A stretch of DNA of 64,000 nt, taken from the NCBI GenBank assembly GCA_036498725.1, contig DASYEY010000200.1, positions 9,401-73,400 of the forward strand, written 5' to 3'. This DNA is from Verrucomicrobiia bacterium (GTDB lineage: Bacteria; Verrucomicrobiota; Verrucomicrobiia; Limisphaerales; UBA11358). The notes beneath the pieces are model-generated. The model did no database searches. It was not told the origin of the DNA and was given only the letters and a program-made list of their open reading frames with translations. Below are positions 27,595-61,926 of the stretch, in pieces. The translations under genes and the position numbers were made by a program. Positions within the stretch are counted from its first letter, which is position 1. Each line of letters opens with the position of its first letter.

Positions 27595-30057
27595 TCATGG
27601 CTGAGTGATTTTAACTCGCAAGAAGCGACTGGCTTTCAGGCCAGCCAGGTCGCGGAGGGTGACACTTTCGTTCGGGAAACCGGTGCGTGAAATTTCCTGG
27701 ACCTGGGCGGTCAAAACAGTGTTGGAACCGGCATAGCTGGCGATTTCTGACCAATTGATCAAATTAGTGGAGGCTTGAACGTGATACGTCACGCCGCTTT
27801 CCGCCGGGCGATGGTTGAAGGTGATCTGGAAATAATGGGTGCTTCCGCTGGCAATTAGATTCGGCAAGGTCATCGTGTTCGTTTTCCAATATTGCAATAG
27901 TTGCACGAGGGCGATCGGTGAATTGGTTGGTACCGGACCATTGGCTTGGGTGATTTCGTTGATGCCATGGCAACTGGTACAGGTACGGATTTCGCCGGGG
28001 GCAAACGTCAGCCAATAACGTTCGCGAACGATCCCCACGCCATTGGTATCAGTCAATTGCCAGGTCATCGCCCGCCGGGCTGGAACAATGGCGGCCTGCG
28101 AACCATCGGCTGCCAATCGTACGCTGGCGAGCGGTGTTCCTTTGGCCGCCGGATTATCCACGGCCGGATCATGCAGGTATTGGGCAATCACCCGCCGACC
28201 TTCGCCGGGTTCATTGGTGTCGCCGTAATTCAGGCTGCGCAATTGATCGGCTTGAAAGAGTTGCAACCACGCGATGTCGTAAATTTTTCCTGACTTGCCA
28301 ATCGTTTCATGCCCCGTACCGGCAATGCGTAAATTGAAAGGCTGTTGAAAGTCGGCGTGGTCGCGCGTCGTAACATCGCGGCTGACGATGAGTGCCAAAT
28401 TGTGGGTGCGCAGATAATTTTGAAACGCGCCAATATCCACACCCGCTGTGGCAAAAGCGGCTTTTTCTGGCATATCAATGGGAACGGAAAAAGGCACCGG
28501 GCGGGGGCGGGCGATGACTTCGACGGGGTCAAATTCCCATAGCCGATTCGTCACTAAATTGAGCAAGTAACTGTTGGGATCGAAATAACTGGCGTTATTG
28601 GTCAGTCCAGAGGTGAGAAAAGTACCTGGCACATAATAACCGTTGGTGAATTGGAGAAACTTCAACCGAAAGTCATAGCTGGTCGTGGGATAATTTGTCT
28701 CGGGGAAATTCACCGTATCTCCATCCATTTCCGCCTGGGTGTTCGTCGTATGTGAGGCCAAAAAATAGCCGTCGGAAGTCATCAAGGGATTGCGGTAAAG
28801 TCCGGTGTGATCTGGCGGCACTTCGTCCGGTGAATCGGCGTAGGAGTGCGTTGAACGCGGGGTAAGATAATTGATGCGCATGTAAAACGCATTCAAGTTG
28901 GTGTTGCCAGTGAGCGAAACGATCTGTCCGGCACCATGTGTCGCAAATTCCGGGGCGTCAATGCCGTAGAATAATCCTTGAACTTTGGGGTCTTCGCGCA
29001 CTTCCAGAAAATTTTCAATCGTGTTCGTATTATAGTGGTCACCGAAGTAATAAAGCGCGTCCAGATTAGGATCATTGGTGAAAGATACTGAAGCGTAACT
29101 GCCGCCGATCTCATGGCGACCGATGTGATTTACCGTTTCTTCATCGGTGCCGTCCTGGTTGATCGCCCACGGAAAAAATTGATTAAATGAATTGCCGAGC
29201 AGGTCGGTGCCGGCCAACAGATCGGTGCGTACATCGCGCGGTTCGGGGTAAACTTCGGTGACGTCCCGGGTCGGGACAGAATTGGAAGATTCATCGCTCC
29301 AATTGAAAGGACCATAAACCACCTTGCCTTCTTCCCAATCCGTGTCTGCCTGCTGATCGCGTTGCAAATGATCCCAACGCACAAAAATAATTCTCCCGGC
29401 GCTGTCAACCAAAGGTGAAAACGCACCGCTCGGCGTATGGTTGACCATGAACAGATCGCCATTCGTCGGCTGCAAGCTCCAGATACCGGTCACCGTGGCA
29501 AGTTCTTCGTATTCGTCTAATTGCGGGTAGAGCTGGCGTTCACCATTGCGCGGCCGGTCGCTGGTGAAAATGATCCGGTCGTCCGAACCGTAAACCGGCG
29601 CGATATTGTTAAAGTTTGTTGGTTGATTCGAGACTTTCGTGATGACAGGAATGGAGTTGGGATTGGTGAAATTGGTAATTTCGTAAAGTTGCCAATAATG
29701 GTCGGTGGCGTCATTGATGTCCTTGGGCGTGCCGATCACCATGCTGAATACCGCCTTTTTCCCATCCCAATACATGCTGGGCTGCCGCACGGCGATGCCG
29801 TTCGGTTCCTGCGCGCCCCATTGGCCGTAACCGGCGGCGCGGGTCAAATTTTTGACGCTGCCATCAGGATATCGGATATACAGATCGCCCCCGCGTCCAC
29901 AGGATTCGGTGGTGCCGCGTTGATTGCCAAAAGTTGAGGCGATTGTCCCAAAATCAGCCGGAACGGGTACTTGGGTGACAAAAAGAATGGAGTTGGTTGG
30001 ACCCGCGAATCCGCTGAAGGCCGCGAATAGCAGCCCAAGTCGTACGAGAAACTTCAT
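27595..30057 (-). CDS. 820-aa secreted protein with TolB/PD40-like propeller signatures, a single C-terminal CxxCH, and the FYRV-type C-terminal module. It may be HzsA-related (tentative).
   Basis: Signal peptide: MKFLVRLGLLFAAFSGFA. It carries DDRIIFTSDRPRNGE and GRIIFVRWDHLQRD. The motif PGEIRTCTSCHGINE places its CxxCH at 27967..27981 on the minus strand. C-terminus: HYFQITFNHRPAESGVTYHVQASTNLINWSEI...SRFLRVKITQP. Confidence 0.65.
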   Translation of the reverse strand: MKFLVRLGLLFAAFSGFAGPTNSILFVTQVPVPADFGTIASTFGNQRGTTESCGRGGDLYIRYPDGSVKNLTRAAGYGQWGAQEPNGIAVRQPSMYWDGKKAVFSMVIGTPKDINDATDHYWQLYEITNFTNPNSIPVITKVSNQPTNFNNIAPVYGSDDRIIFTSDRPRNGERQLYPQLDEYEELATVTGIWSLQPTNGDLFMVNHTPSGAFSPLVDSAGRIIFVRWDHLQRDQQADTDWEEGKVVYGPFNWSDESSNSVPTRDVTEVYPEPRDVRTDLLAGTDLLGNSFNQFFPWAINQDGTDEETVNHIGRHEIGGSYASVSFTNDPNLDALYYFGDHYNTNTIENFLEVREDPKVQGLFYGIDAPEFATHGAGQIVSLTGNTNLNAFYMRINYLTPRSTHSYADSPDEVPPDHTGLYRNPLMTSDGYFLASHTTNTQAEMDGDTVNFPETNYPTTSYDFRLKFLQFTNGYYVPGTFLTSGLTNNASYFDPNSYLLNLVTNRLWEFDPVEVIARPRPVPFSVPIDMPEKAAFATAGVDIGAFQNYLRTHNLALIVSRDVTTRDHADFQQPFNLRIAGTGHETIGKSGKIYDIAWLQLFQADQLRSLNYGDTNEPGEGRRVIAQYLHDPAVDNPAAKGTPLASVRLAADGSQAAIVPARRAMTWQLTDTNGVGIVRERYWLTFAPGEIRTCTSCHGINEITQANGPVPTNSPIALVQLLQYWKTNTMTLPNLIASGSTHYFQITFNHRPAESGVTYHVQASTNLINWSEIASYAGSNTVLTAQVQEISRTGFPNESVTLRDLAGLKASRFLRVKITQP

Positions 30058-48378: not shown

Positions 48379-48492
48379 ATGCAGTGGAATAAATGCCCTA
48401 TTCCAAACTGGCTTCAGTTTTGGAATGGTTTTTTCCTTGTAGAACCGGCGATCGGCGTTCACAGTCGCAGCAGGTTTAAAAATAATCAACTT

Positions 48493-49497
48493 ATGGGAAC
48501 TATATTCTTCGGTTGTGTGGTTGGTTTCGTTGCCTGGTTTCTCGTCCGCTATCTCGCCGCTGGATTTTATACGGTGGACCAAAATGAACGCGCGGTGAAA
48601 ACCTGCTTCGGCCGCGCTGAACGCGTTGGTACGGCAACAACCTTGGATGACCCGATCTCCGTCGCATTGAACGCCGAGGAACGCGACCGGTATAATTATC
48701 CGCAAGTGCGTGTCATTCCGCCGGGCGGCCCTTATTTCAAATGGCCGTGGGAAAAAGTTTATAAGGTTACGGTTGCCACACAGACGATGAACATGGCGTT
48801 GGATTTGGAGGATGCCTCGGCCAATTACGGTGGGACTATCCTGGAAGCGGTCACGAAAGATCAACTGAACACCGGACTGAAAGGGCAGATCCGTTGGCGG
48901 GTTTCGGAACGAAATCTGTATGCGTATGTTTTTGGCGTAAAACAACCGATCGTTCACGTCATGGGTTATTTCATTTCGATCCTGCGCGAACGCATCGCAA
49001 ATTTTGAAGCGCCACCGGCGGTTAAAAATCCGGCCGACACGGCGCCCCATAACATCGCAGCCACGGCGGTGATCGGCATTTCCATCAACGACCTGCGGAA
49101 AAATCTGCGGGATATCAACGAACACATGGATCGTGAATGTGTGGGTTCGGCGGCGCGTTATGGTATCACCTTGGATGCCTCATTGATCACCGGCATTGAT
49201 CCGCCACCGGAAGTTGAGTCGGCGCTCGCGGCGATCAACACGGCTTACAATGAAGTTTCCTCCAGCATCAGCCTGGCGCAGGCCAGTGCGGATCAAAAAA
49301 TCGTGCAGTCAAAACGCGCGGTGGAAATCGAGACGCTTAAGGCGCAAGCCGAAGTCCAGCCACTGGTTGCTCTGGCTGACCAATTGACAGACTTGAAGAA
49401 GAATGGAACCGGAGCCCTTGACGCGTACGTTCGCAACGTGCGGCTCAAATTATACAGCGAAGCCAAAACCGTGATTGTGGAGGCTAATCGTGAATGA
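48493..49497 (+). CDS. SPFH/Band-7 domain membrane protein (HflK/C- or stomatin-like), first of a pair
   Basis: Taken from ATG 48493: MGTIFFGCVVGFVAWFLVRYL (TM) followed by FYTVDQNERAVKTCFGRAERV... and a C-terminal coiled-coil-like region (SLAQASADQKIVQSKRAVEIETLKAQAE). Confidence 0.75.
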   Translation: MGTIFFGCVVGFVAWFLVRYLAAGFYTVDQNERAVKTCFGRAERVGTATTLDDPISVALNAEERDRYNYPQVRVIPPGGPYFKWPWEKVYKVTVATQTMNMALDLEDASANYGGTILEAVTKDQLNTGLKGQIRWRVSERNLYAYVFGVKQPIVHVMGYFISILRERIANFEAPPAVKNPADTAPHNIAATAVIGISINDLRKNLRDINEHMDRECVGSAARYGITLDASLITGIDPPPEVESALAAINTAYNEVSSSISLAQASADQKIVQSKRAVEIETLKAQAEVQPLVALADQLTDLKKNGTGALDAYVRNVRLKLYSEAKTVIVEANRE

Positions 49498-50428
49498 TAA
49501 TCCTTTGAATACTCCCGTCGGACATTTCCTGCTCGCAGCGATCATTACGTTTGTCGGCATGTTCATCTTGCTGCCGATTTTATTCGGCATTGCGCGGGCA
49601 TTCGGCATTTACACCATCGTCGAAGAGCGTCGGTGCAAAGTGTATATGCTGTTCGGCAAAGTCGTTACCGTGATTGACCAGCCGGGATTGCATTTCTTGA
49701 TCTTTAAAATTGGCCTCAAGGCGCCACTGATCAGTTTTCTTGGCAAATGCTTTACCCTCGATCTGCGGCTGGATCAGGAATATCTCCGGAGCACGCCGGT
49801 GAATTCCGAGGAAGGCGCGCCGATGGGCATTGGGGTCTGGTATGAAATGGTCATTTGCGATCCGGTGGCGTACCTTTTCAAAAATGCCGACCCGCGCGGA
49901 TCACTCGCCGCGAATGTCGGCAATTCCACCGTGCGTTGCCTGAGCAATTTGAAACTGGCAGACATGCTGGAAAATCGCCACCCCATGAGCCAGACCGTGC
50001 GCACCGAAGTGTCGCCGCAATCCGCAGAATGGGGTTATAGTCTGGGTTCGACCTACATCCGCAAAGTGCATTTTCGCGACGAAGGCATGATCAAGCAGAT
50101 CGAAGAAAAAGTTGTGAACCGTTTGCGGCAGGTGACGTCGGCCATCAAGCAGGATGGCACGAATCAGGTGAACATCATCGCCAGCACGGCGGAACAACAG
50201 GCGGCGATTGAGTTTGCCAAGGCGGCGGCGATGCGGCCGCAGATTGTGGGATTGGCCCTGCAAAAGATTTCGCAAGACCCGGATGTTTCACGGGCATTGT
50301 TCGAAGCGCTGGAAACGCAAAATATTATTGATGGTGAAGCTGTAATCACGTTGGTGCCAAAGAACTCCAGTTTGCTGGGACAGCTTGTGGCCGCGACCCA
50401 AGGAGTGAAACCGGGTGCGGGAAAATGA
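49475..50428 (+). CDS. SPFH/Band-7 domain membrane protein, second of the pair
   Basis: A TM helix (FLLAAIITFVGMFILLPILFGIA) is followed by IYTIVEERRCKVYMLFGKVVTVIDQPGLHF...YIRKVHFRDEGMIKQIE. The start is TTG 49475 or GTG 49490; both overlap the end of the upstream gene. Confidence 0.75.
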   Translation: MWRLIVNDNPLNTPVGHFLLAAIITFVGMFILLPILFGIARAFGIYTIVEERRCKVYMLFGKVVTVIDQPGLHFLIFKIGLKAPLISFLGKCFTLDLRLDQEYLRSTPVNSEEGAPMGIGVWYEMVICDPVAYLFKNADPRGSLAANVGNSTVRCLSNLKLADMLENRHPMSQTVRTEVSPQSAEWGYSLGSTYIRKVHFRDEGMIKQIEEKVVNRLRQVTSAIKQDGTNQVNIIASTAEQQAAIEFAKAAAMRPQIVGLALQKISQDPDVSRALFEALETQNIIDGEAVITLVPKNSSLLGQLVAATQGVKPGAGK

Positions 50429-50932: not shown

Positions 50933-51601
50933 ATGTCAGCAATTTTTCCGAAGTGGACAAACTGGTTGCCGTTAGCGTTAGGCGTTGGAGCCGCGCTGAC
51001 GGGTGTTGCCGTGGCGGCAGGCGTGACGATTTATCTCACGCCTAAATACACGCGTGCCGGTTATCAGCCAGTGCAACCGGTGCCGTTCTCGCACAAGATT
51101 CATGCGGGACAACTTGGCGTTGATTGCCGCTATTGTCACAGTGGCGTGGATAAATCCTGGGTTGCCAATATCCCGTCCGCTTCCACCTGCATGAATTGTC
51201 ATAATCAGGTGTTGAAAGATGATCCTCGCCTGGCCTTGGTCCGGGAAAGTGCGACCAACAATACGCCCATTCCGTGGGTGCAGGTGCACATTACGCCCGA
51301 CTACGTTTATTTCAACCATTCCGTTCACGTCACTCGTGGCATCAGCTGCGTGGAATGTCACGGTCGCGTGGATCAAATGGATGAGGTCCGCCACGTCAAG
51401 TCGTTTAGCATGAGTTTCTGTTTGGATTGTCACCGCGATCCGGCGGCGCATATCCGTCCGACGGACAAAGTCACTGATTTGGGTTGGAAATGGGATGCCG
51501 ATCCCGCCAAAGCTGCCCAGTTGCAAGCCGTCAATGGCGCGAAATTCGTGCACGACTGGAAAGTGGAATCGCTGCAAAGCTGCTCGGCCTGTCACCGATG
51601 A
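50933..51601 (+). CDS. actA: Alternative complex III subunit ActA (pentahaem cytochrome c)
   Basis: 222 aa with an N-terminal TM anchor and five CxxCH motifs (CRYCH, CMNCH, CVECH, CLDCH, CSACH). Confidence 0.85.
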   Translation: MSAIFPKWTNWLPLALGVGAALTGVAVAAGVTIYLTPKYTRAGYQPVQPVPFSHKIHAGQLGVDCRYCHSGVDKSWVANIPSASTCMNCHNQVLKDDPRLALVRESATNNTPIPWVQVHITPDYVYFNHSVHVTRGISCVECHGRVDQMDEVRHVKSFSMSFCLDCHRDPAAHIRPTDKVTDLGWKWDADPAKAAQLQAVNGAKFVHDWKVESLQSCSACHR

Positions 51602-54600
51602 AAACTATTTTGAAATACGCACCCGCGCCGACGACTGGCCGCCGCTACTGGCGCAGCTTGGACGAATTGTCCGATACGCCGGAGTTCAAGGAATGGTTGC
51701 ATCGTGAATTTCCTGCCGGTGCCAGCGAGATGGAAGACGGGCAGACCCGCCGCAGTTTTCTCAAAATCATGTCAGCGTCATTCGCGTTGGCGGGTTTGGG
51801 ACTGGCTGGAGCCGGATGTCGTCGCCCGGAAGAAAAACTGGAACCGTTTGGCAAGCAGCCTGCCGATTATGTTTTTGGTGAGCCGGAATACTATGCCACC
51901 GCGATGCCGACGCGTACTGGCGCGATGCCGCTTGTCGTCAAGTCTTACGAAGGTCGTCCGGTCAAAATTGAAGGTAATGCGCTGTATCCTGGCAGCAACG
52001 GCAGCACGGACCGTTACGCGCAGGCTTCGATCCTGAATCTTTACGATCCGGACCGCGCCCGCAATTTCACGCAGGATGGCAAGGCGGTTTCCCGTGAAAC
52101 GGCATTGAGTTCTTTGGATGAGCTTTCCAAAAAAATCACCGCCAATGGCGGTGAAGGTCTGGCGTTCCTTGCCGAAAGCAGCACGTCGCCCTCGCGCGCG
52201 CGCCTGCAAAAAAACATCGCGCTGAAATTTCCGAACTCGAAATGGTTCACTTACGACGCGATTGATTCCGGCATCCATCAACGCGCGGCGACGCAGGCAT
52301 TTGGTCAATCAGTGCGTCCGGTTTTTAACTTTGACAAGGCGAAGGTTATTCTGTCGCTCGACTGTGATTTTCTCGGCGGCGAAGATGATGTGCATAATCA
52401 CATCCGCAAATTTGCCGCCGGTCGCAAAGCGGGCGAGGGGATGAATCGTCTTTATGCGGTTGAATCGCTTTACACGCTTACGGGTGCGGGCGCAGATCAT
52501 CGTTTGCGGATTCCCGCTTCCCAAGTCGTCAAGACAGCCGCGGAAATTTTGGGTCAGGTTATGGGCGGCGCAAGTGCGTCCACACCTTGGGCGGCGGAAT
52601 GCGCCAAAGATTTGATCGTGGCTGGCAAAAACGCCTTGGTCGTTGCTGGCCACCGGCAGCCGATCGAAGTCCATCTGCTCGCCCACGCCATCAACACCGC
52701 GTTGAATGGTATCGGCAATACAATTTCTTTGCTGCCGGTCGAAAAGACAACCAATGAAGATTTAAAAAATCTCGATGGTGCCGCGACGGATACGCTGGTC
52801 ATTCTCGGTGGTAATCCAGCTTACAATCTGAATTGGTCGCCGAAATCGAAGACGGTGGTCCGACTGGGGTATTATCCGGACGAAACGGCCGAGAAATCAT
52901 TCTTGAATTTTCCGGCGGCGCATTATCTCGAATCGTGGAGCGACGCGGTCACGAGCGATGGCTCGGTTGTCCCCGTTCAGCCATTGATTCAGCCGTTGTT
53001 CAACGGTTTGCAGGAATTGGAATTTCTGGCCCGCCTCGCTGGCGAATCAGAAACCAGCGCTTACGAAATTGTCCGGACAACCTCCGGTCTTTCCGAAGCG
53101 GCCTGGAAACAATTTTTATTCAATGGTTTTGCCGCGTCAAAAACGGAGTCCTTGACCGGCGTGAAGATGGTTCAATCATCCAATGATTTGAATCAATTAC
53201 TGGCGAACGTGAAAAGCATCACGCCTTCCGCCTCTAATCTCGAAGTTGTTTTCTTCCGTGATGCGAAAGCCGACGACGGCGCACTGGCCAATAACGGCTG
53301 GATGCAGGAATTGCCCGATCCCATCACCAAGATGACGTGGGACAATGCCGTGCTCATCAGCCGCAAGACGGCGCGTGACTTGGGCGTGCAAAACGGCGAT
53401 GTCGTGGAGATTTCGTTGAATGGCAAAACGGTGAGCGGTCCGATTTGGACCCAGCCGGGCATGGCGGATTATTCGCTTGGCCTCGCGCTTGGTTATGGCC
53501 GTGAAAAAGCCGGTCGCGTCGGCAACGGTGTCGGTTTCAACGCTTATAAAATTTTCAGCGGCAAATTTATCGAAGCCGGAGCGACGGTTAAGAAGACCGG
53601 CGCCACTTATACCCTGGCCTGCACGCAGCATCACTGGAGCATGGAAGGCCGTCCGGCCGTGCGTGAAGCGAACCTTGAAGAATTTCTCAAAGAACCAACG
53701 TTCGCCGAGGAAAATTTCCATGGCGTCGAGCCGCCGGTTGTCAAATCGCTTTATCCGAACCCGCTGGATGAGGCAAAGAAGACGGCTTTGCATCAATGGG
53801 GGATGTCCATTGATTTGAACGCATGCGTCGGTTGCGGCACGTGCATCATTGCCTGCCAAAGCGAAAACAACATTCCGATCGTCGGCAAAGACCAGGTCTT
53901 GCGCGGGCGCGAAATGCACTGGCTGCGGGTGGATCGCTATTTCACGTCGGATCCGAAACGTAAAAACAATAAAAGCCCGTTTGATTTCGGCGCGGACGAA
54001 AATCAGAGCGATGAAAATCAGCAGTTCGCCAAATGGATTGATGACGTGCAGGTTGTCAATCAGCCGATGCCTTGCCAGATGTGCGAATCGGCGCCATGCG
54101 AAAGCGTTTGCCCGGTCAACGCCACCGTTCACGACCAGGAAGGTTTGAACGTGATGGCTTACAACCGCTGCATTGGCACGCGGTATTGCTCGAACAACTG
54201 CCCTTACAAGGTTCGTCGTTTCAATTTCCTGGATTACAACAAACGCCCGCTGACGGAGCTGAATGGCACGACAAAATTTGGGGTAACAGCTTATTCCACG
54301 ACGCTCACGCACAAGACGGATGGCGAAGCGGATATTTTACGCTGGTGGAAAGACCCGAACAGCGGGATGCGCACCGAAGACGAGTGGGACTTGATCAAGC
54401 TCTCGAAGAACCCGGATGTGACCGTGCGTATGCGCGGGGTCATGGAGAAGTGCACCTATTGCACACAGCGCATCGAGCAGGCAAAAATTTCGCAAAAAGC
54501 CAAAGCCGGCGGCAGTGATAATGTCCGGCTTACGGAGGCGGCGGGAACGGTTCCCAAGACCGCATGCCAGCAGGCATGTCCGGCCGGGGCCATCGTCTTC

Positions 54601-54807
54601 GGTGATATCAGTGACGCGGCGAGCACAGTTTCGACCTTGAAAAAATTGCCGCACAATTATTCCGTCCTCGGTGACTTGTTGACCAAGCCGCGCACGACCT
54701 ATCTGGCGCGCATCCGCAATCCGAATCCGGCGATGCCCGATTATCATGTGCCGTTCAGTACGGAAGAATACGAAAATGCAAGTCTGGCGAAGAAAGGCAA
54801 CAGCTAA
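51598..54807 (+). CDS. actB: Alternative complex III subunit ActB (molybdopterin-oxidoreductase-like domain fused to an FeS domain)
   Basis: The start is taken at ATG 51598 (ATGA overlap with the actA stop). The ORF-track start at 51484 lies inside actA. The Tat motif is TRRSFLKIMSASFALAGLGLAG. FeS clusters: CVGCGTCIIACQSENN, CQMCESAPCESVCP, CIGTRYCSNNCPYKVRRFN, CTYCTQRI and CQQACPAGAIVFGD. Confidence 0.88.
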   Translation: MKTILKYAPAPTTGRRYWRSLDELSDTPEFKEWLHREFPAGASEMEDGQTRRSFLKIMSASFALAGLGLAGAGCRRPEEKLEPFGKQPADYVFGEPEYYATAMPTRTGAMPLVVKSYEGRPVKIEGNALYPGSNGSTDRYAQASILNLYDPDRARNFTQDGKAVSRETALSSLDELSKKITANGGEGLAFLAESSTSPSRARLQKNIALKFPNSKWFTYDAIDSGIHQRAATQAFGQSVRPVFNFDKAKVILSLDCDFLGGEDDVHNHIRKFAAGRKAGEGMNRLYAVESLYTLTGAGADHRLRIPASQVVKTAAEILGQVMGGASASTPWAAECAKDLIVAGKNALVVAGHRQPIEVHLLAHAINTALNGIGNTISLLPVEKTTNEDLKNLDGAATDTLVILGGNPAYNLNWSPKSKTVVRLGYYPDETAEKSFLNFPAAHYLESWSDAVTSDGSVVPVQPLIQPLFNGLQELEFLARLAGESETSAYEIVRTTSGLSEAAWKQFLFNGFAASKTESLTGVKMVQSSNDLNQLLANVKSITPSASNLEVVFFRDAKADDGALANNGWMQELPDPITKMTWDNAVLISRKTARDLGVQNGDVVEISLNGKTVSGPIWTQPGMADYSLGLALGYGREKAGRVGNGVGFNAYKIFSGKFIEAGATVKKTGATYTLACTQHHWSMEGRPAVREANLEEFLKEPTFAEENFHGVEPPVVKSLYPNPLDEAKKTALHQWGMSIDLNACVGCGTCIIACQSENNIPIVGKDQVLRGREMHWLRVDRYFTSDPKRKNNKSPFDFGADENQSDENQQFAKWIDDVQVVNQPMPCQMCESAPCESVCPVNATVHDQEGLNVMAYNRCIGTRYCSNNCPYKVRRFNFLDYNKRPLTELNGTTKFGVTAYSTTLTHKTDGEADILRWWKDPNSGMRTEDEWDLIKLSKNPDVTVRMRGVMEKCTYCTQRIEQAKISQKAKAGGSDNVRLTEAAGTVPKTACQQACPAGAIVFGDISDAASTVSTLKKLPHNYSVLGDLLTKPRTTYLARIRNPNPAMPDYHVPFSTEEYENASLAKKGNS

Positions 54808-56243
54808 TGTCTGACTCCGTGACCAATCTGGAAGAGTTGAAAAAACTCGTGCCGCCGGCGGAACTCCGCCGTGCGCCGGTCGTTGAGGGCAATAAAGGTC
54901 TTGGCTGGCTGACGGATAAACTGGCCGCGTTCGCCGAAGGCAAAACGCCGCTCTGGTGGTGGATTTTTTTCATCCCGGCCGCGTTTGCTGCAACAGTGAT
55001 CTTTCCGGTGTGTCTGTTTTATCAAGTGTTCACCGGCGTTGGGGTCTGGGGTAACAACCATCCCGTGATGTGGGGCCTGGACATCGTGAATTTCATCTGG
55101 TGGGTCGGCGTCGCGCATGCGGGCACGTTGATTTCTGCGCTCCTGTTTTTGACCAAACAACATTGGCGCACAACCATTGGACGCATGGCGGAAGCCATGA
55201 CGGTTTTTTCCGTGATGATGGCCGGGCTTTATCCGGCGATCCACGTCGGGCGTGCCTGGTTCGATTGGTTCATGTTCCCCGTGCCGAATTCCAACGACCT
55301 GTGGCCGCAATTTCGTTCGCCGTTGATGTGGGACGTGTTCGCCGTGAACACTTACCTCGTCGTCTCGATGTTGTTCTTTTTCATGGGCATGATCCCGGAC
55401 TTCGCAGTGTTGCGCGACCGCTCGACCACGCGTGTCCGCAAGGCGATCTTCAGTATCTTGGCAATGGGTTGGACGGGTTCCGCGCGGCATTGGCATCATT
55501 ATGAAAAAGCCTATGTGGTGATGTGCGGCCTTTGCACGCTGTTGGTGTTTACGGTGAGTTCCATCGTCGGTCTCGACTTTTGCACCGCGCAAATCGCGGG
55601 CTGGCACGCGACGATTTTTCCGTTGTATTTCGTCATCGGCGCGGTGTTCTGCGGTTTCGGCATGATGCTCGTCCTCTTGATTCCGTTGCGCAAATGGTGC
55701 GGACTCGAAAACGTCATCACCAAGAGTCACATTGATAAAGTGGCCAAGCTTGCCTTGGTCAGCGGTCTGATCATTGATTACATCTATTTGATGGAATTTT
55801 TCATCGCCTGGTACAGCGGCGATCCTTATGAACGCTGGGTGTTCGGTCATCGCCTGTTCGGTCATACATATTTCGTCATGGGCTGGATCTTGATCGGCAT
55901 CAACGTCTGCGTGACACAGTTGCTTTGGTTCAAAAAAGTCCGTTCCAATTTGGCCATGCTGTTTGTCATCGGCATTTTGATCAACATCGGCATGTGGAGC
56001 GAACGCTTCGTCATTGTCGTCGGCTCGTTGTATCAGGAATTTTTGCCGGCGAACTGGGGCAAATATATGCCGACGATTTGGGACGTCGGTCTTTACATCG
56101 GCACCCTCGGCGCCTTTTTCATGCTGTATCTGTTGTTTGTGAAATTCCTGCCAATGATCGCTATTTCTGAAGTGAAAGGTGTCATGCCGGAAGCGGACCC
56201 GCATCACAAACTCGGTGGGGCCAAAACCGGAGGTGACAAGTGA
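54807..56243 (+). CDS. actC: Alternative complex III subunit ActC (NrfD/PsrC-like quinol-interacting membrane subunit)
   Basis: 478 aa, polytopic, with GVWGNNHPVMWGLDIVNFIWWVGVAHAGTLIS. There is a 1-nt TAATG overlap with actB. Confidence 0.85.
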   Translation: MSDSVTNLEELKKLVPPAELRRAPVVEGNKGLGWLTDKLAAFAEGKTPLWWWIFFIPAAFAATVIFPVCLFYQVFTGVGVWGNNHPVMWGLDIVNFIWWVGVAHAGTLISALLFLTKQHWRTTIGRMAEAMTVFSVMMAGLYPAIHVGRAWFDWFMFPVPNSNDLWPQFRSPLMWDVFAVNTYLVVSMLFFFMGMIPDFAVLRDRSTTRVRKAIFSILAMGWTGSARHWHHYEKAYVVMCGLCTLLVFTVSSIVGLDFCTAQIAGWHATIFPLYFVIGAVFCGFGMMLVLLIPLRKWCGLENVITKSHIDKVAKLALVSGLIIDYIYLMEFFIAWYSGDPYERWVFGHRLFGHTYFVMGWILIGINVCVTQLLWFKKVRSNLAMLFVIGILINIGMWSERFVIVVGSLYQEFLPANWGKYMPTIWDVGLYIGTLGAFFMLYLLFVKFLPMIAISEVKGVMPEADPHHKLGGAKTGGDK

Positions 56244-56791
56244 ACGCACCCGCTGGAGAAAAAATTTACGGCATCATGGCGGAATTTGATTCGCCGGCCG
56301 CGATTTTGCGTGCTGCGGAACAAGTCCGTGACGCTGGTTATCGTCGCTGGGATACCTTCACGCCGTTCCCGGTTCACGGCATGGACAAGGTCATGAAACT
56401 CGGCAATTCGCTGGTTGGCTGGGTCGCTTTGGCGGGTGGCGCATTCATGTTTCTCAATGTCGCCGGACTCATCTGGTTCAGCAATGCGTTTGATTATCCG
56501 CTGATTGTTGGTGGCAAACCGATGTTCAGCGTACCGATGACGTTCGTGCCCTCGTACATTATGCTCATCATGGGCGGGGCAGTAGGGGCATTGATCGGCA
56601 TGTTGGGTTTGAATCAATTGCCGCGCTTGCACCATCCACTCTTGAAAAAGCCCGCTTTTGAAGCCGTTTCACGCGATAAATTTATCCTGCTGATTGGTGC
56701 GACGGATGAAAAGTTCTGCGCCGCGGAAACCCGCAAGTTGCTGGAGCAAGCCGGCGGCGTGCAAGTCACCATCGTGGAGGACGAAGACTGA
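56240..56791 (+). CDS. actD: Alternative complex III subunit ActD (DUF3341)
   Basis: It carries IYGIMAEFDSPAAILRAAEQVRDAGYRRWDTFTPFPVHGMDKVM. The GTG start overlaps the actC stop (GTGA). Confidence 0.85.
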   Translation: MNAPAGEKIYGIMAEFDSPAAILRAAEQVRDAGYRRWDTFTPFPVHGMDKVMKLGNSLVGWVALAGGAFMFLNVAGLIWFSNAFDYPLIVGGKPMFSVPMTFVPSYIMLIMGGAVGALIGMLGLNQLPRLHHPLLKKPAFEAVSRDKFILLIGATDEKFCAAETRKLLEQAGGVQVTIVEDED

Positions 56792-57447
56792 TGCGTTACG
56801 TTATTTCCATTTTATTGATCAGTACGGCCATCGGCGCCGCGACCTTTGGCATGTTGGGATGGCAAGGCGGCTTGATGCGCAAACCGCCGTTTGAATTATT
56901 CCCCGACATGGACCGGCAGGCGAAATTACGCCCGCAGAAGCCGTTTGCGTTTTTCACCAACGGCCTCAGTTCACAATTGGCTCCGGCTGGCACCATTGCC
57001 CGCAGTGTCCCCATTGAGACGAGCAATGGCCCGGTCTATCGTTTTGAAGATTCGCCCGTCAACACGGGGATGACAACGGGTACCACAAACTTTATTGAAA
57101 ACAATCCGTTGCCAGTGACCGGTGTGTTGCTGGCACGCGGCCATGAACGCTTTGATATCTATTGCGCACCCTGCCACGGCAAAATGGGGGATGGCAATGG
57201 CATCACCAAACGGATCGGGGCCATGCCCGCCGTGGCGAACCTGCACGATGCGCGCATCGTGGAGATGGCCGATGGCGAGATTTTTAACACCGTTACCCAC
57301 GGCAAAGGCTTGATGGGCGCCTATGGCCCGATTGTGCCGGCGGAAGATCGTTGGGCGTTGATCGCTTATTTGCGCGCATTGCAATTGAGCACGCTCGGCT
57401 CGACCGATGATTTGACGCCCGAGCAACAGGCCGCTTTGAATAAATGA
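56791..57447 (+). CDS. actE: Alternative complex III subunit ActE (monohaem cytochrome c)
   Basis: It has a single CxxCH in ERFDIYCAPCHGKMGDGNG and an N-terminal hydrophobic anchor without a lipobox Cys. There is a TGATG overlap with actD. Confidence 0.8.
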   Translation: MRYVISILLISTAIGAATFGMLGWQGGLMRKPPFELFPDMDRQAKLRPQKPFAFFTNGLSSQLAPAGTIARSVPIETSNGPVYRFEDSPVNTGMTTGTTNFIENNPLPVTGVLLARGHERFDIYCAPCHGKMGDGNGITKRIGAMPAVANLHDARIVEMADGEIFNTVTHGKGLMGAYGPIVPAEDRWALIAYLRALQLSTLGSTDDLTPEQQAALNK

Positions 57448-58706
57448 CCATGAGTTCAAACCACGCAAAAAATCAATTGCCGCCGCTGGATCTTTCCAAG
57501 TGGCGCGGCTTGCCGAAGGTTTTGATGGTCATCGGCGGAATTTTATCGGTGGCCGGATTGGCCGTCAGCGGTTACAAAAATCACTTTCAGGAATTCGGAT
57601 TTTCCTGGCTGCTGGCGTTCATGTTTTTTTACAGCCTCGCGCTGGGCTCATTGTTTCTCGTGATGATCCATCACTTGACCGATGCCGGTTGGTCGGTTGG
57701 CATCCGCCGCTTTTGTGAACATCTGGCGTCATTGCTGGGCTGGCCGTTGATCGCCATGTTCCTGCCGGTTGCAATTTTTGCGAAAGATATATACAGTTGG
57801 ATGAAGTTCAGCCCGGAGACCAATAATTTGGTCGCGGCTAAATTGCCGGTGTTCACTCAGACGGGATTTTACGTCACTTCCGCGATTTTCTTCGGTTTCT
57901 TGTGGTTTTTATCTTGGCGTCTGAGTTCGTTGTCGTTGCAACAGGACAAGACGGGTGCGGCGGAGCAAACGTACAAAATGCGTTTTTATTCGGGGTGGGG
58001 GATTGTTGCCCTCGCGTTGGTGATCACTTTTTCCGGCGTGTTATGGATGAAGGCCGTTCAGTATGAGTGGTTTTCCTGCATCTATGGCGTCTATTTCTTT
58101 TCCGACTGCGCATGGATCGCATTGGCAACGGTTTATATGATTGCTGCGATCTTGTACCGCCAGCGTATTTTGGCCGGATTATTGCAGGAAAATTATTTCT
58201 ACTACATCGGATTATTGTTCTTTGGTTTCACGTTGTTTTCGGCGTACACGGAGTTTGCGCAATACTTTGTCGTTTGGAACGCCAACATGCCGCAGGAAAC
58301 ATTCTGGTACCTTATCCGTGAAAACGGTAATTGGTGGACCTTAAGCCTGATATTGATTCTGGGACATTTCTTTGTGCCGTTTTTTATCCTGTTGCCGGTC
58401 AAGGTTAAGAGCAGCTTCAAAGTCGTCATCCCTGTCTGTCTCTGGGCCTGGTTGATGCACGCGCTGGACCTGGCGTTCAATATTTTCCCGACGTTGCACA
58501 ACGACGGTTATCATTTTAAATGGATTTGGCTGCCGCTCGGTACGATGCTTTTCATGGGCGGATTTTTGGCGCAGATTTTCCTGAATAAATTTAATGCCAA
58601 TCCGCCGTATCCGCAGCGTGATCCCCGCCTGCTCGAAGCGATGGGCGTGAACGCAAACCTCGTCAATGATCTGACGCCGGCCACCAATACGGGAGGCAAC
58701 CAATGA
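57444..58706 (+). CDS. actF: Alternative complex III subunit ActF (second NrfD-like membrane subunit)
   Basis: 420 aa, polytopic, in the canonical position after actE. There is an ATGA overlap with actE. Confidence 0.8.
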   Translation: MTMSSNHAKNQLPPLDLSKWRGLPKVLMVIGGILSVAGLAVSGYKNHFQEFGFSWLLAFMFFYSLALGSLFLVMIHHLTDAGWSVGIRRFCEHLASLLGWPLIAMFLPVAIFAKDIYSWMKFSPETNNLVAAKLPVFTQTGFYVTSAIFFGFLWFLSWRLSSLSLQQDKTGAAEQTYKMRFYSGWGIVALALVITFSGVLWMKAVQYEWFSCIYGVYFFSDCAWIALATVYMIAAILYRQRILAGLLQENYFYYIGLLFFGFTLFSAYTEFAQYFVVWNANMPQETFWYLIRENGNWWTLSLILILGHFFVPFFILLPVKVKSSFKVVIPVCLWAWLMHALDLAFNIFPTLHNDGYHFKWIWLPLGTMLFMGGFLAQIFLNKFNANPPYPQRDPRLLEAMGVNANLVNDLTPATNTGGNQ

Positions 58707-59071
58707 GTCTTGAAAATACCAATCGCGCTTCCGGTGCCGTCATCGCCTTCATCATCGGCAGTTTGATTTTTATCGTGCTGTCCGTCGTGGCAAAATTTGC
58801 GGTCACCGTGCCGGATATAGACGCCGACCCGGGTGCGCTCCGCAGCCGGGCACTGGTCCAGATGCGGGCCGTGGAATCTACCAATTTGACCGAACTCGGC
58901 TGGGCTGATGTCTCCCGCGGACTGGTGCGTTTGCCGATTGAAACGGCGATGCAGAAGGCCGAAAAGTTGTGGCAAAATCCGGCGCAAGCCCGCGCTGAAT
59001 TGATTGCGCGTGAAAAGAAGGCGGTCGCGCCCGCGCCGACGCGTCCGGTCAAACCCAGTGCCTTTGAATGA
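58703..59071 (+). CDS. Small single-TM protein of unknown function. Its position is compatible with an ActG/ActH-type accessory subunit, but I did not recognise any homology.
   Basis: 122 aa with one TM helix (GAVIAFIIGSLIFIVLSVVAKF) and a soluble tail. There are ATGA overlaps on both sides. Confidence 0.6.
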   Translation: MSLENTNRASGAVIAFIIGSLIFIVLSVVAKFAVTVPDIDADPGALRSRALVQMRAVESTNLTELGWADVSRGLVRLPIETAMQKAEKLWQNPAQARAELIAREKKAVAPAPTRPVKPSAFE

Positions 59072-60486
59072 ACGTGAACGAAAAATCTAACGCTGCTGAT
59101 GTCTCCCCGGGCCAGATCGACGCCTCGTGTCGTGTGCCTTTGCTCGCGCTGTTTGGCGGCGCAGCCCTGTGGCTGGTCGTCGGCCTCGTGCTGGCCTTGA
59201 TCGCTTCGATCAAATTTCATCAGCCCGAGTTTCTGGTAAATTGTTCGTTGCTCACTTACGGTCGCGTTCAAGCGGCGGCGAATGATCTGATTCTTTACGG
59301 CTTTGCCATTCCTGCCGGGCTGGGCGTGATGCTCTGGATCTTTGCCCGTTTAAGCCAGGCTGAACTCATCCTGCCGCTGGTGCCGGTTGTCGCTGCCAAT
59401 ATCTGGCATGCCGGCGTCTTTATCGGCTTGGTGGCGATTTTGATCGGCGAAACTTCTGGCTTTGCGTGGTTGGAATTTCCGCGCGCCAGCTTCGCCTTGA
59501 TGCTCGCGGCGTTTATTTTGATCGCCCTCTCTGCGGCCGGTACTTTTGGACAACGCCGGGAGCGCGAGCTTTATCCCTCGCATTGGTTTCTCCTGGCGGC
59601 GTTGCTGTGGTTCCCTTGGATTTATTCCACCGCCAATATTTTCCTTTTAATCTGGCCGGTGCGCGGCGTCGCGCAGGCGGTCATCAACTGGTGGTATGTG
59701 AACAATCTGATCTTTGTCTGGCTGACCCTTGTCGGCCTTGGCGTCGCCTTCTATTTCCTGCCGAAATTGGGCGGCAAGCCATTGCACAGCCGCTTTTATG
59801 CGCAATTTGCTTTCTGGACTTTGACGTTGTTCGGAACGTTCCTCGGCATTCCTCAGGGTGCACCGGTGCCGGCCTGGTTTCCGGCCGCCAGCACGCTGGC
59901 TTCAGTGTTATTGATCATTCCACTGATCGCCGTCGCCATCATTTTTGTCAAAACCGTTTGTGGAGCAGGCGCCAATTGCAAAGGCGGACCTTTCTGCCAG
60001 GTCAAATTTGGCACGGTTGTATTCCTATTGTCCGGCCTGATGCTGATCGCCATCAGTTGCCCGCACTTCAGCCAGATCACCCGTTATACCTGGTTTGAAA
60101 CCGCGCAAACCCAGTTGCAAATTTTTGGCTTCTTCGCAATTGTGATTCTCGCTGGCGCCAATGAAATATTGCCGCGCATCATGGCTTCGGCGCTGCCATT
60201 TCCGAAATTTGTCCGCGTGCAGCATTGGTGTTTTATGCTCGGCACCCTGTTGCTGGTCGGTTCACTGGCGGTCAGCGGCATCGAACAAGGTCTGAATAAT
60301 TACAGCTTCGCGACGGCCTTGCCGGCGTTGCGTATCAGCACCTTGGGTCTGTTTTTATTATTGATCGGCAGTCTGTTGTTTGCCGCCAATGTTTTTGTGA
60401 TGACGATCAAGTGGAAACTCGGTTTGGCCAAGGTGGTATTTACGACCGTGACGGCGCCATTGAAAACGGCGGAGGTGAAATCATGA
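59068..60486 (+). CDS. CcoN-like (cbb3 oxidase subunit I fold) polytopic membrane protein lacking all canonical haem and CuB histidine ligands
   Basis: 472 aa. It is colinear with CcoN signature blocks, but the ligand positions are substituted: YGRVQAAANDLI, WWYVNNLIFV, LGIPQGAPV and ETAQTQLQIFGF (see finding). Conserved non-ligand blocks are retained (FYFLPK, VQHWCFMLG). Confidence 0.75.
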   Translation: MNVNEKSNAADVSPGQIDASCRVPLLALFGGAALWLVVGLVLALIASIKFHQPEFLVNCSLLTYGRVQAAANDLILYGFAIPAGLGVMLWIFARLSQAELILPLVPVVAANIWHAGVFIGLVAILIGETSGFAWLEFPRASFALMLAAFILIALSAAGTFGQRRERELYPSHWFLLAALLWFPWIYSTANIFLLIWPVRGVAQAVINWWYVNNLIFVWLTLVGLGVAFYFLPKLGGKPLHSRFYAQFAFWTLTLFGTFLGIPQGAPVPAWFPAASTLASVLLIIPLIAVAIIFVKTVCGAGANCKGGPFCQVKFGTVVFLLSGLMLIAISCPHFSQITRYTWFETAQTQLQIFGFFAIVILAGANEILPRIMASALPFPKFVRVQHWCFMLGTLLLVGSLAVSGIEQGLNNYSFATALPALRISTLGLFLLLIGSLLFAANVFVMTIKWKLGLAKVVFTTVTAPLKTAEVKS

Positions 60487-61280
60487 AAAACGGCTTTACA
60501 GTTTTCCTGGCATCCTTCTTTGTGCTCGGCAGTTCGTGGACGGCCTTCGTGCTCGGCTCGGCAATCCAGCTTGGCCATGAAAAGCAGACCACGGTGCTGA
60601 ATGGCTCGGATGCTTATCCGGTTCAACGTGCTGGTGAGGCCACCCTTGGGTTGCAAGTATATCGTGCCAGTGGGTGTGCAGCTTGCCACACTGAACAGGT
60701 TCAACAAAATGGCATGGCGTGCGATGTGATCCTGACTGCGGCGGGAAAGAATGCGGCTGCAGTTTCCAATCTGGTCGCCAAGCTGAAACTGAGCGATCTT
60801 TCAGAAGAGGAAGCGGCGGCAACGGCTGATAAAATCACGGCGGCTGGCGGAAAAGTGGAAACCCGCATCATTGCCACCGGCGGCGACATTGCCCGTGGCT
60901 GGGGTATCCGGCATAGCGTTGCTGCTGACTACCTTTACGATTATCCGGTTCAACTTGGCAGTCTTCGCGTCGGGCCTGACTTGGGAGCGATCGGGGTTCG
61001 CATGGCCGATGTAAATCTGCAATTGCAACATCTTTACGCCCCGAAGAGCGTGAATGCTGCTTCGGCCATGCCGCCGTTCAGGTTTTTATTTGAAGTTCGC
61101 AAGGTGGGCACCGTGCGTTCGCCGGAAGCTTTGAATTTGCCCAAAGAATTTGCGCCGGCGGATGGCTACGAGGTCGTGCCCAAACCGGAAGCCAGACAAC
61201 TCGTGGCGTATCTTTTGAGCCTGCGCGCTGATGTGCCGTTATATGAAGCGCCGTTCACGCCTGCCACTCCCAAAAAATGA
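60483..61280 (+). CDS. CcoO-like monohaem cytochrome c (cbb3 subunit II homologue) with an insert of about 58 aa after the haem motif
   Basis: Taken from ATG 60483 (ATGA overlap). It has a TM anchor; GLQVYRASGCAACHTEQV (CxxCH at 60675..60689); DYLYDYPVQLGSLRVGPDLGAIG; and HLYAPKSVNAASAMPPF (the Met ligand region). Confidence 0.78.
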   Translation: MKNGFTVFLASFFVLGSSWTAFVLGSAIQLGHEKQTTVLNGSDAYPVQRAGEATLGLQVYRASGCAACHTEQVQQNGMACDVILTAAGKNAAAVSNLVAKLKLSDLSEEEAAATADKITAAGGKVETRIIATGGDIARGWGIRHSVAADYLYDYPVQLGSLRVGPDLGAIGVRMADVNLQLQHLYAPKSVNAASAMPPFRFLFEVRKVGTVRSPEALNLPKEFAPADGYEVVPKPEARQLVAYLLSLRADVPLYEAPFTPATPKK

Positions 61281-61879
61281 GCGACGAATCCAAATCCTGT
61301 TCCACTCCGTCCAACGCTGAACCCAAGGCGACGCGTTCGACTGTGCCCATGTGGATTTTTTCAGCGATGCTCGTGCTGATTTATCTGGGTACGGTTTATT
61401 TCGATCACCACAGCGGCTGGTTCAGTGCGAAGGTCTATTCCCCTTACGGCAACGTGGATGAATTGGAATTGTACCAGCCGAAGTCCGGCGCTGCCGCGCA
61501 GTTGGCGCGTGGTAAACAAGTTTACGAACAGGTCTGCGGCCTCTGTCACGGCGTGGACGGCATGGGTAAACCCGGGCAGGCGCCGCCGCTGGCCGGCTCC
61601 GAATGGGTCATGGCGAAGGGAACCACCCGCCTGACGCACATTCCTTTGCTTGGAGTCACGGGCACGATCAAAGTACAGGGCAAAGATTGGAACATGTCCA
61701 TGGCCGCAATGGGTGCTTCCTTGTCAGACTCAGACCTGGCATCGGTACTGACTTATATCCGTGGCTCTTGGGGCAATAAAGCTGAAGCGGTGACGGCTGA
61801 CGATGTGAAGGCGGTCCGGGCTGGCATCAAATCACCGGTGCCGATGACCGGTGAACAGATGATGAAGATGCCGGAATAA
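61277..61879 (+). CDS. Membrane-anchored monohaem class I cytochrome c (CcoP-like single domain)
   Basis: 200 aa with a TM helix (MWIFSAMLVLIYLGTVYF) and GKQVYEQVCGLCHGVDGMGKPGQAPPLAGSEW...SMAAMG. There is an ATGA overlap with the CcoO-like gene. Confidence 0.8.
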   Translation: MSDESKSCSTPSNAEPKATRSTVPMWIFSAMLVLIYLGTVYFDHHSGWFSAKVYSPYGNVDELELYQPKSGAAAQLARGKQVYEQVCGLCHGVDGMGKPGQAPPLAGSEWVMAKGTTRLTHIPLLGVTGTIKVQGKDWNMSMAAMGASLSDSDLASVLTYIRGSWGNKAEAVTADDVKAVRAGIKSPVPMTGEQMMKMPE

Positions 61880-61898: not shown

Positions 61899-61926
61899 AA
61901 AAGGCGTCCATTGTGGACGCCTTTTT
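61899..61926. terminator. Bidirectional Rho-independent terminator between the respiratory operon and queG
   Basis: AAAA-GGCGTCCA(61903..61910)-TTG-TGGACGCC(61914..61921)-TTTTT(61922..61926). The A-run and T-run flank the stem symmetrically. Confidence 0.8.

Follow-up and report, generated by a model that had tools for sequence, protein, structure and literature searches.

A CcoN-like subunit without metal ligands in an alternative complex III operon of Verrucomicrobiota

The subject of this paper is a single gene of a 64,000-nucleotide stretch of Verrucomicrobiia DNA, which we call the window and to whose positions all coordinates refer. The gene is the open reading frame (ORF) at 59068..60486 of the plus strand; it encodes, in an intact frame, a protein of 472 amino acids (aa), here called the CcoN-like protein. 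This protein is a pseudo-oxidase subunit: it has the 12-helix fold of subunit I of the haem-copper oxidases and none of the metal ligands that go with it. It is most likely a structural relic, and not an oxidase.

The CcoN-like gene belongs to an operon of ten genes, all on the plus strand. The first six are those of an alternative complex III (ACIII), in the order actABCDEF, with a pentahaem ActA, an iron-sulfur (Fe-S) ActB, NrfD-like ActC and ActF, an ActD and a monohaem ActE. Gene actA (50933..51601) heads the conserved cluster and encodes a pentahaem cytochrome c with five CXXCH motifs, whose homologues in loci L081-L090 have multihaem Pfam matches. It is followed by actB (51598..54807), the Fe-S/molybdopterin-like subunit, which probably starts at the ATG at 51598 in an ATGA overlap with actA, and whose orthologues match Fer4; by actC (54807..56243), the NrfD-like quinol-interacting membrane subunit, whose orthologues match PF03916 (58-94% identity, 70 loci); and by actD (56240..56791), which has a GTGA overlap with actC and orthologues that match PF11821 (ActD). 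Next are actE (56791..57447), a monohaem cytochrome c with one CXXCH and a match to Pfam Cytochrome_CBB3 (E = 1.2e-12), and actF (57444..58706), the second NrfD-like membrane subunit, which has no Pfam match, ATGA overlaps on both sides, and the position and length of ActF in all loci compared. A small single-helix protein, s122 (58703..59071, no Pfam match), is encoded directly 5' of the CcoN-like gene, here and in 80 of the 80 related loci described below. Two cytochromes c come after it: a CcoO-like monohaem protein of 265 aa (60483..61280), and a membrane-anchored monohaem protein that is CcoP-like with one haem domain (61277..61879). At each of the nine junctions of the operon the stop codon overlaps the next start codon (ATGA, TAATG, GTGA or TGATG), and the operon ends at an intrinsic-terminator-like hairpin with a 12-bp stem and a T run (61899..61925).

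Fold and homology both place the CcoN-like protein in the haem-copper oxidase superfamily. Against the Pfam profile PF00115 (COX1) it scores 120.1 bits (E = 1.5e-34) and passes the curated threshold for the superfamily, set at 34.8; against the NCBIfam equivalog profile for ccoN (TIGR00780) it scores 93.7 bits, and fails the cut-off of 583.15. The closest solved structures found with phmmer are the CcoN chains of cbb3 oxidases 9g6b, 8smr and 3mk7 (E ~1e-17). A profile-profile comparison with hhalign, between a family alignment of 129 sequences (A3) and an alignment of 27 canonical CcoN sequences from Verrucomicrobiota and Planctomycetota (A5; we use PVC for this group), reaches a probability of 100 and E = 2.5e-145 over 454 columns, with 34% identity. 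The model that AlphaFold2 (AF2) builds from A3 has a mean predicted local distance difference test (pLDDT) of 96, a predicted template modelling score (pTM) of 0.94 and 12 long helices, which in this prediction form the core of 12 transmembrane helices typical of the superfamily. Its top Foldseek match is 3mk7_A, with a template modelling (TM) score of 0.85 and 20% identity, followed by NorB of cNOR and by subunits I of ba3 and aa3 oxidases; the Foldseek E-values are 1.2e-17 for CcoN and 4.5e-10 for NorB.

Six His residues form a near-invariant signature of the haem-copper superfamily. In CcoN of Pseudomonas stutzeri (3mk7) we take the relevant residues to be His60 and His347 for haem b, His345 for haem b3, His207, His257 and His258 for CuB, and Tyr251 for the cross-link. 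The corresponding columns were set by three methods: phmmer against 3mk7_A, MAFFT with 120 close and about 130 distant homologues, and hhalign. Residues 22-454 of the P. stutzeri protein were rebuilt from the phmmer alignment, and the positions of their His and Tyr agree with the numbering of the crystal structure. The three methods concur: the six ligand His and the cross-link Tyr are all missing from the CcoN-like protein.

The column of haem b ligand His60 holds Ala71 (59278..59280), which is Ala in 121 of 121 close homologues, a set made of the query and 120 database proteins. The column of CuB ligand His207 holds Asn212 (59701..59703), and there the close homologues have Asn (85), Asp (34) or Gly (2). 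In the segment that runs from the Tyr251 column through the CuB region of His257 and His258 (59833..59856), the alignments place Gly256 opposite the Tyr, in a column that holds Gly or Ala in most of the wider family, and oppose to the two His either Pro262-Gln263 or a gap of two residues, according to gap placement; hhalign shows the two-residue deletion, and Pro262 is conserved in 120 of the 121. The columns of His345 and His347 hold Gln347 and Gln349 (60106..60114), the former kept in all close homologues save one (120/121). The protein does have six His of its own, at 51, 114, 172, 240, 333 and 386, and all of them fall outside the ligand columns. A misalignment that would mask real ligands is ruled out by the agreement between phmmer, MAFFT and hhalign. 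We also considered a two-amino-acid Verrucomicrobia signature (PMC3444138) as a possible counterpart of the His-His deletion, and rejected it: that signature is an insert.

An earlier examination of the window, the sequence-only reading, had proposed much of this: a colinear CcoN homologue with all six His replaced by the residues just listed, a Tyr position that is no longer Tyr, and surviving blocks FYFLPK and VQHWCF. The three alignment methods uphold the substitutions, the two blocks align as claimed in the phmmer comparison with 3mk7_A, and the check that it named, the PF00115 profile and Foldseek against cbb3 structures, confirms the superfamily fold.

The site of cNOR and qNOR, with two haems and an FeB held by three His and one Glu, is not found in the CcoN-like protein either, since the six His columns have no His. 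The chemical hallmarks of both the C-family oxidases and the NOR enzymes are absent, and the protein should consequently not be filed as a cbb3 oxidase. Judged by its sequence, it cannot act as an oxidase by the known mechanism.

The gene that encodes this protein is nevertheless under constraint. All of its 81 orthologous ORFs are intact, and the ratio of nonsynonymous to synonymous substitution rates (dN/dS; pairwise, Nei-Gojobori) lies between 0.09 and 0.19, which matches the range of ActD, ActE and ActF and is below that of s122. The same substitutions recur in 120 database proteins with at least 64% identity to the query. In a scan of one genome per species, a close relative was found in 189 species genomes, from which 80 loci were analysed: almost all are labelled Verrucomicrobiota (subdivision 3, Limisphaerales), and a few labels of metagenome-assembled genomes (MAGs) name other taxa. 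The order actA-B-C-D-E-F, s122, N-like, O-like, cytochrome c is the same in 80 of 80 close loci, as far as the contigs reach. In the window, the CcoN-like gene is coupled on both sides by ATGA overlaps, at 59068 and 60483. The intact frame, the translational coupling on both sides and the maintenance of the gene had all been put forward from the letters of the window; the dN/dS values, the intact orthologues and the invariant synteny now establish that it is maintained, and rule out decay into a pseudogene.

The two cytochromes that follow retain their haem sites. The CcoO-like protein (Pfam FixO, E = 3.2e-15) most likely starts at the ATG at 60483, in the ATGA overlap and with GGAGGTG upstream, which yields 265 aa, and not at the GTG at 60411, which would open an ORF of 289 aa. 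Its haem c site consists of CAACH at 60675-60689 and Met196 at 61068-61070: in alignments to solved cbb3 CcoO, GCAACH stands opposite GCYVCH, and SAMPPF opposite the Met-Pro ligand region. Residues C65, C68, H69 and M196 are invariant in 56 of 56 O-like proteins. The last cytochrome c carries CGLCH at 61535-61549 and matches Pfam Cytochrom_C (E = 9e-12); its match to the NCBIfam ccoP profile (E = 5.6e-6) is far under the cut-off. The partners are thus those of a cbb3 operon, a CcoO monohaem cytochrome c and then a CcoP-type cytochrome c, with one haem domain instead of two in the third subunit. Selection has thus kept the haem c ligands of the periplasmic partners and given up all metal sites of the membrane subunit.

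The CcoO-like protein also has a clade-specific insertion of about 61 aa directly after its CXXCH (60702..60884), present in 57 of about 80 close-clade loci and longer in some of them; neither canonical CcoO nor the O-like proteins outside this clade have it. Within the insertion, Pfam gives a weak hint of the C-terminal domain of ribosomal protein L7/L12 (E = 0.14). On the other side of the CcoN-like gene, s122 has a motif G.VR[LI]P[IV][ED] and, in many loci, a C-terminal tail KPS[AD][FY]E, and it has homologues in L081-L087 and in a canonical operon of Telmatocola. Every operon compared, including the functional one of Telmatocola, has an s122-type protein 5' of its CcoN or N-like gene. This homology across all operons, the canonical one included, makes s122 a component of the ancestral ACIII-cbb3 unit; it may be an undescribed accessory subunit of ACIII or cbb3.

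The loss of ligands extends far beyond the close clade. A search of 1.84 billion cluster representatives gave 310 at E <= 1e-30, and at least 120 clusters at 50% identity are without the ligands. Counted over the six ligand columns, the 131 best representatives with a length of 400 aa or more have no His in 77 cases, one in 40, two in 9, three in 1, four in 1 and all six in 3. The "dead" haem-copper core that was read from the window is a property shared by 77 of 131 family representatives, which have no ligand-column His at all. The substitutes vary: Ala, Gln, Ser, Phe and Gly occur at column 60, and Leu, Gln, Arg and Val at column 345. Across the ligand-less family, the former ligand columns show no sign of constraint. 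Invariance in the broad alignment is limited to W35, G65 and G78; near-invariance extends chiefly to Trp, Gly, Pro and Arg residues, besides one Tyr and one Phe. Of the residues that might replace an axial ligand (His, Met, Cys or Lys), none is conserved throughout the family in this alignment.

The neighbour-joining tree of the family, a rough distance tree and an untested phylogeny, has three canonical sequences and the protein P0182 at its base, and gathers the ligand-less proteins in one large radiation. Nine ligand-deficient members from outside the close clade were compared (in L081, L082 with its partly degenerate protein, L084-L087, L090 and L091), and in them the N-like, FixO and cytochrome c genes are consecutive; in every distant member with upstream sequence (L081, L082, L084-L087, L090), ACIII and a small protein precede the N-like gene. 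The same ACIII-linked order, with an s122-like protein, surrounds the canonical CcoN of Telmatocola sphagniphila, which has all seven residues. The Telmatocola operon has in addition a FixS gene 5' of CcoN and a P-type ATPase gene 3' of the cytochrome. Both canonical operons that were examined for this, L083 and L088, have a CcoI-type P-type ATPase, and L083 also has FixS. A search of the 64-kb window and of the 80 ligand-less loci, with flanks of up to 10 kb per side, found no homologue of FixS or of the P-type ATPase, a result that concerns linkage only. These comparisons indicate that the ligand-less family arose from a functional ACIII-cbb3 operon of PVC type and radiated widely in Verrucomicrobiota.

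Three groups of relatives deserve separate mention. P0182 (L082, 5791-7251, in an Opitutales MAG) shows the pattern HHAQYHH at the seven positions: the haem ligands are retained, and the Tyr and two CuB His are gone. Among its nearest relatives, 114 of 120 are canonical (HHYHHHH), including that of Opitutaceae bacterium TAV1, and one of these relatives comes from a subdivision 3 MAG; P0182 is a lone degenerate CcoN within an otherwise canonical clade, still located 3' of ACIII, and looks like an independent and more recent loss of the CuB site. Two MAGs labelled Verrucomicrobia subdivision 3 (L088, L089) have a canonical operon, ccoN-ccoO-cytochrome c-P-type ATPase, that stands alone and unlinked to ACIII, next to an extracytoplasmic function (ECF) sigma/anti-sigma pair and sulfur-related genes (DsrE, DsrC-like), with a catalase nearby. 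A canonical cbb3 operon that is separate from ACIII suggests that the live and the dead forms are distinct paralogues with distinct roles; as far as sequence comparison can tell, the two are separate lineages, and the dead one has retained the ACIII-linked position. The third group is a Verrucomicrobiaceae sister clade (L081, L087; P0241, P0298-P0416), in which the equivalent of His60 is present in 118 of 118 sequences, His207 is mostly kept, and His257, His258, His345 and His347 are lost; one axial His persists there without its partner.

In some genomes an aa3 oxidase is encoded next to the operon. Phragmitibacter flavus, a cultured organism, has at L087 a complete aa3 operon directly behind the cytochrome c gene and in the same orientation: COX1, COX3, COX4, two small genes and COX2, then CtaA, CtaB, SCO1 and DUF420. 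This COX1 carries GHPEVY, HHMY and GHFHYV. The Prosthecobacter-like locus L081 has the core COX1, COX3, COX4, COX2 and CtaA, with a 274-aa protein encoded 5' of COX1 and no CtaB, SCO1 or DUF420. A similar aa3 operon adjoins L025, the sole case among the 80 close-clade loci. The COX2 proteins of L081 and L087 contain the CuA-type motif CxxxCxxxHxxM and no CXXCH, which means that the aa3 oxidase needs an external cytochrome c donor.

The close clade has conserved Cys and His residues of its own. The Cys-rich loop CGAGANCKGGPFC (aa 298-310, 59959..59997) is predicted, from the helix boundaries of the model, to be cytoplasmic and to lie between helices 8 and 9. The sequence-only reading had singled it out as a new loop: it is present, and conserved in the close clade only, being missing from the wider family. 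Conservation among the close homologues is 121/121 for C21, 119/121 for C304, 121/121 for C310 and 75/121 for C298; H51, H114, H172 and H386 are also conserved in that clade. In the model, C21 (59128-59130), C298, C304 and C310 are on the predicted cytoplasmic face, while C59 (59242-59244) and C331 (60058-60060), likewise conserved in the close clade, are on the predicted periplasmic face. The cytoplasmic set could be a metal site, and C59 and C331 could form a disulfide.

Downstream of the operon are queG and a shikimate kinase gene, on the opposite strand. No other respiratory genes were found in the 64 kb, which otherwise encode glycoside hydrolases, a phospholipase C-like giant protein, ComEC, PPDK and similar proteins. 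Two tandem SPFH/Band-7 genes (48379-50428) lie directly 5' of actA; the only other locus with this adjacency is L013, so that a conserved link to actA was rejected (1/80 loci) and the adjacency is probably incidental. An 820-aa ORF on the minus strand (27595-30057) has a weak match to the middle domain of hydrazine synthase alpha (PF18582, E = 1.7e-8); it sits among large secreted and Ig-domain proteins, and the neighbouring 1060-aa ORF (24260-27442) has no Pfam match.

What would such a protein be kept for? We consider it probable that it is a non-catalytic pseudoenzyme that scaffolds the CcoO-like and CcoP-like cytochromes c on ACIII. The genomic context argues for this role: the genes are linked to those of ACIII, the haem c ligands of the CcoO-like partner are invariant, and linked copper-maturation genes are absent. 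The ancestral PVC operon would have consisted of ACIII and a working cbb3 oxidase, an arrangement that survives in Telmatocola. In Verrucomicrobiota, the ACIII-linked CcoN would then have given up both haems (b and b3), CuB and the cross-linked Tyr, keeping its 12-helix fold as a membrane platform that ties the two monohaem cytochromes c to ACIII. Electrons would pass from menaquinol, through the Fe-S clusters of ActC/ActB, to the haems of ActA and to ActE, then to the haem c of the CcoO-like protein, to the anchored cytochrome c, and finally to a separate terminal acceptor. In Verrucomicrobiaceae this acceptor would most likely be the aa3 oxidase encoded directly downstream; in the clade of the window, it would be encoded elsewhere. 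From gene context we infer the physical complex with ACIII as well as the direction of electron flow and the identity of the acceptor. A more specific proposal, which we hold only tentatively, is that an ACIII-cbb3 supercomplex has turned into an ACIII-(pseudo-cbb3)-aa3 chain, in which the dead CcoN and its cytochromes are a built-in adaptor that feeds aa3; the cytoplasmic Cys/His site of the close clade may in that case have a regulatory or metal-binding role.

Several observations weigh against a scaffold on ACIII. The association of the CcoN-like protein with ACIII is one that we infer from gene order alone, and the aa3 operon is adjacent in just 3 of about 90 loci examined. A pure scaffold does not explain the His60 equivalent that is found in all Verrucomicrobiaceae sequences, and C21, C304 and C310 of the close clade, together with H51, H114, H172 and H386, could form a new site. 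Finally, a constrained body of 12 helices seems to exceed what is needed to anchor cytochromes that have membrane helices of their own, so that an additional role is possible. One such role would be that of a repurposed H+ or Na+ translocator, or of a conformational coupling module that moves in step with ACIII turnover. Purifying selection over the entire 12-helix body, and not over a docking surface alone, agrees with it, as do the very high confidence of the predicted fold and a family-wide set of conserved charged or polar residues (D18, R22, R94, E136, R163, R199, Q203, K233); proton translocation by ACIII itself is described as unresolved in a review (PMC8498564). In the model, however, these polar residues are mostly at helix ends or in loops, outside the membrane core. 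At the positions that we presume to form the proton pathway of P. stutzeri CcoN, the protein mostly has hydrophobic or small residues (F228, A245, A248, G256, F319, M325), and the family varies there. A subunit devoid of redox chemistry has, moreover, no evident driving force, and we regard translocation or coupling as unlikely. The sequence-only reading had offered a scaffold or an ion channel: docking of the cytochromes on ACIII is the better supported of the two, by genomic context, and the channel gained no specific support.

Alternatively, the protein may have remained a redox enzyme or a cofactor carrier, with haem or another metal bound through non-canonical ligands; in the clade of the window these would be the cytoplasmic C21, C298, C304 and C310 or the His that the clade conserves. 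The conservation of C21, C304, C310 and of four His in the close clade, and of the His60 equivalent in 118 of 118 Verrucomicrobiaceae sequences, speaks for this, and there are precedents of altered ligation: His/Met in nNOR, His/Lys in some eNOR, and Asp for His in gNOR (PMC11214002). The candidate residues, however, are not conserved family-wide, which would make any such site clade-specific and secondary. The ligand columns themselves follow no pattern (Ala, Gly, Pro, Gln, Leu and similar), the Cys loop is predicted to face the cytoplasm, a long way from the haem c groups that the partners hold in the periplasm, and genes for the maturation of Cu or haem b are not linked; a cofactor held in this way strikes us as quite improbable. 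As for a decaying pseudogene, or a sequencing or assembly artefact, the total loss of catalytic residues and an NCBIfam ccoN score far under its cut-off are what it would predict. It is next to impossible to reconcile with intact ORFs in 81 of 81 cases under low dN/dS, overlapping stop and start codons on both sides, substitutions shared by the 120 database proteins, ligand-less clusters numbering at least 120, relatives in 189 species genomes and a pLDDT of 96.

Among the closest known systems is the cbb3 oxidase itself. Like CcoN of 3mk7, of TAV1 and of Telmatocola, the CcoN-like protein has 12 helices, is colinear, and is followed by CcoO-type and CcoP-like cytochromes; unlike them, it has no ligands for haem b, haem b3 and CuB, no cross-link Tyr, and no linked ccoS or ccoI. 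JGI and NCBI give CcoN-like proteins the label "cbb3-type cytochrome c oxidase subunit I". The "cbb3" genes of Verrucomicrobia, including those adjacent to ACIII, have been treated as a real C-type oxidase (PMC8498564, PMC13608581, PMC7914226), and genome papers count them as evidence of high-affinity, microaerobic respiration in Verrucomicrobiota (PMC7914226, PMC13608581, PMC8498564). For the ligand-less clade that inference is probably wrong, which has consequences for the oxygen niche ascribed to abundant Verrucomicrobiota of soil and fresh water.

Another such system is the supercomplex ACIII-aa3 of Flavobacterium johnsoniae (Sun et al. 2018, cited in PMC8498564 and PMC8552683), in which ACIII is reportedly coupled directly to the terminal oxidase, without a soluble carrier, and the ACIII genes adjoin those of a haem-copper oxidase. 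Loci L081 and L087 resemble it in having an aa3 operon downstream on the same strand. They differ from it in the genes between those of ACIII and those of the A-family oxidase, which encode a C-family subunit that is dead and two cytochromes c with membrane anchors; elsewhere this module stands alone. Sequence and Foldseek searches of the PDB returned no ligand-less CcoN-type chain, and no such module is known from the solved supercomplex. The module points to an unexplored exit of ACIII, a reading that lends itself to direct tests because one carrier, Phragmitibacter flavus, is in culture. If it is indeed an adaptor that feeds aa3, then an oxidase became a scaffold inside a supercomplex, the core of one oxidase family feeding another.

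Other members of the superfamily have altered active sites: gNOR, sNOR, eNOR, nNOR and NOD (Murali et al. 2024, PMC11214002). They are, like the CcoN-like family, divergent, without the cross-linked Tyr, and do not reduce O2. These B-family proteins have kept both haems and a metal site with three or four ligands, whereas the CcoN-like family, of the C-family, has lost them all; gNOR was termed the first superfamily member with even one active-site His replaced (PMC11214002). The branches reported by Murali et al. 2024 (PMC11214002) include none that is free of ligands, and no description of a ligand-less CcoN was found in the full-text papers searched, a negative that does not extend to the "unknown group" of PF00115 (PMC5492636, from Muntyan et al. 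2015). Within the literature searched, no earlier pseudoenzyme branch of the haem-copper oxidases turned up, and a ligand-less radiation kept under strong constraint would be the first. Such a family offers a natural experiment: it can show what is left for the fold to do once the chemistry is gone.

The nearest precedents in concept are redox folds that have outlived a cofactor within a respiratory complex. The MopB-like domain of ActB is free of molybdopterin. The NorC-like domain of qNOR has no haem, and subunit II of bo3 and of gNOR has no CuA (PMC11214002). The likeness to the CcoN-like protein is that a redox fold was kept, within a larger complex, after the loss of its cofactor. The difference is one of extent and of place: each of these relics lost one cofactor in an accessory domain, and the CcoN-like protein, a core subunit, has lost all three metal centres.

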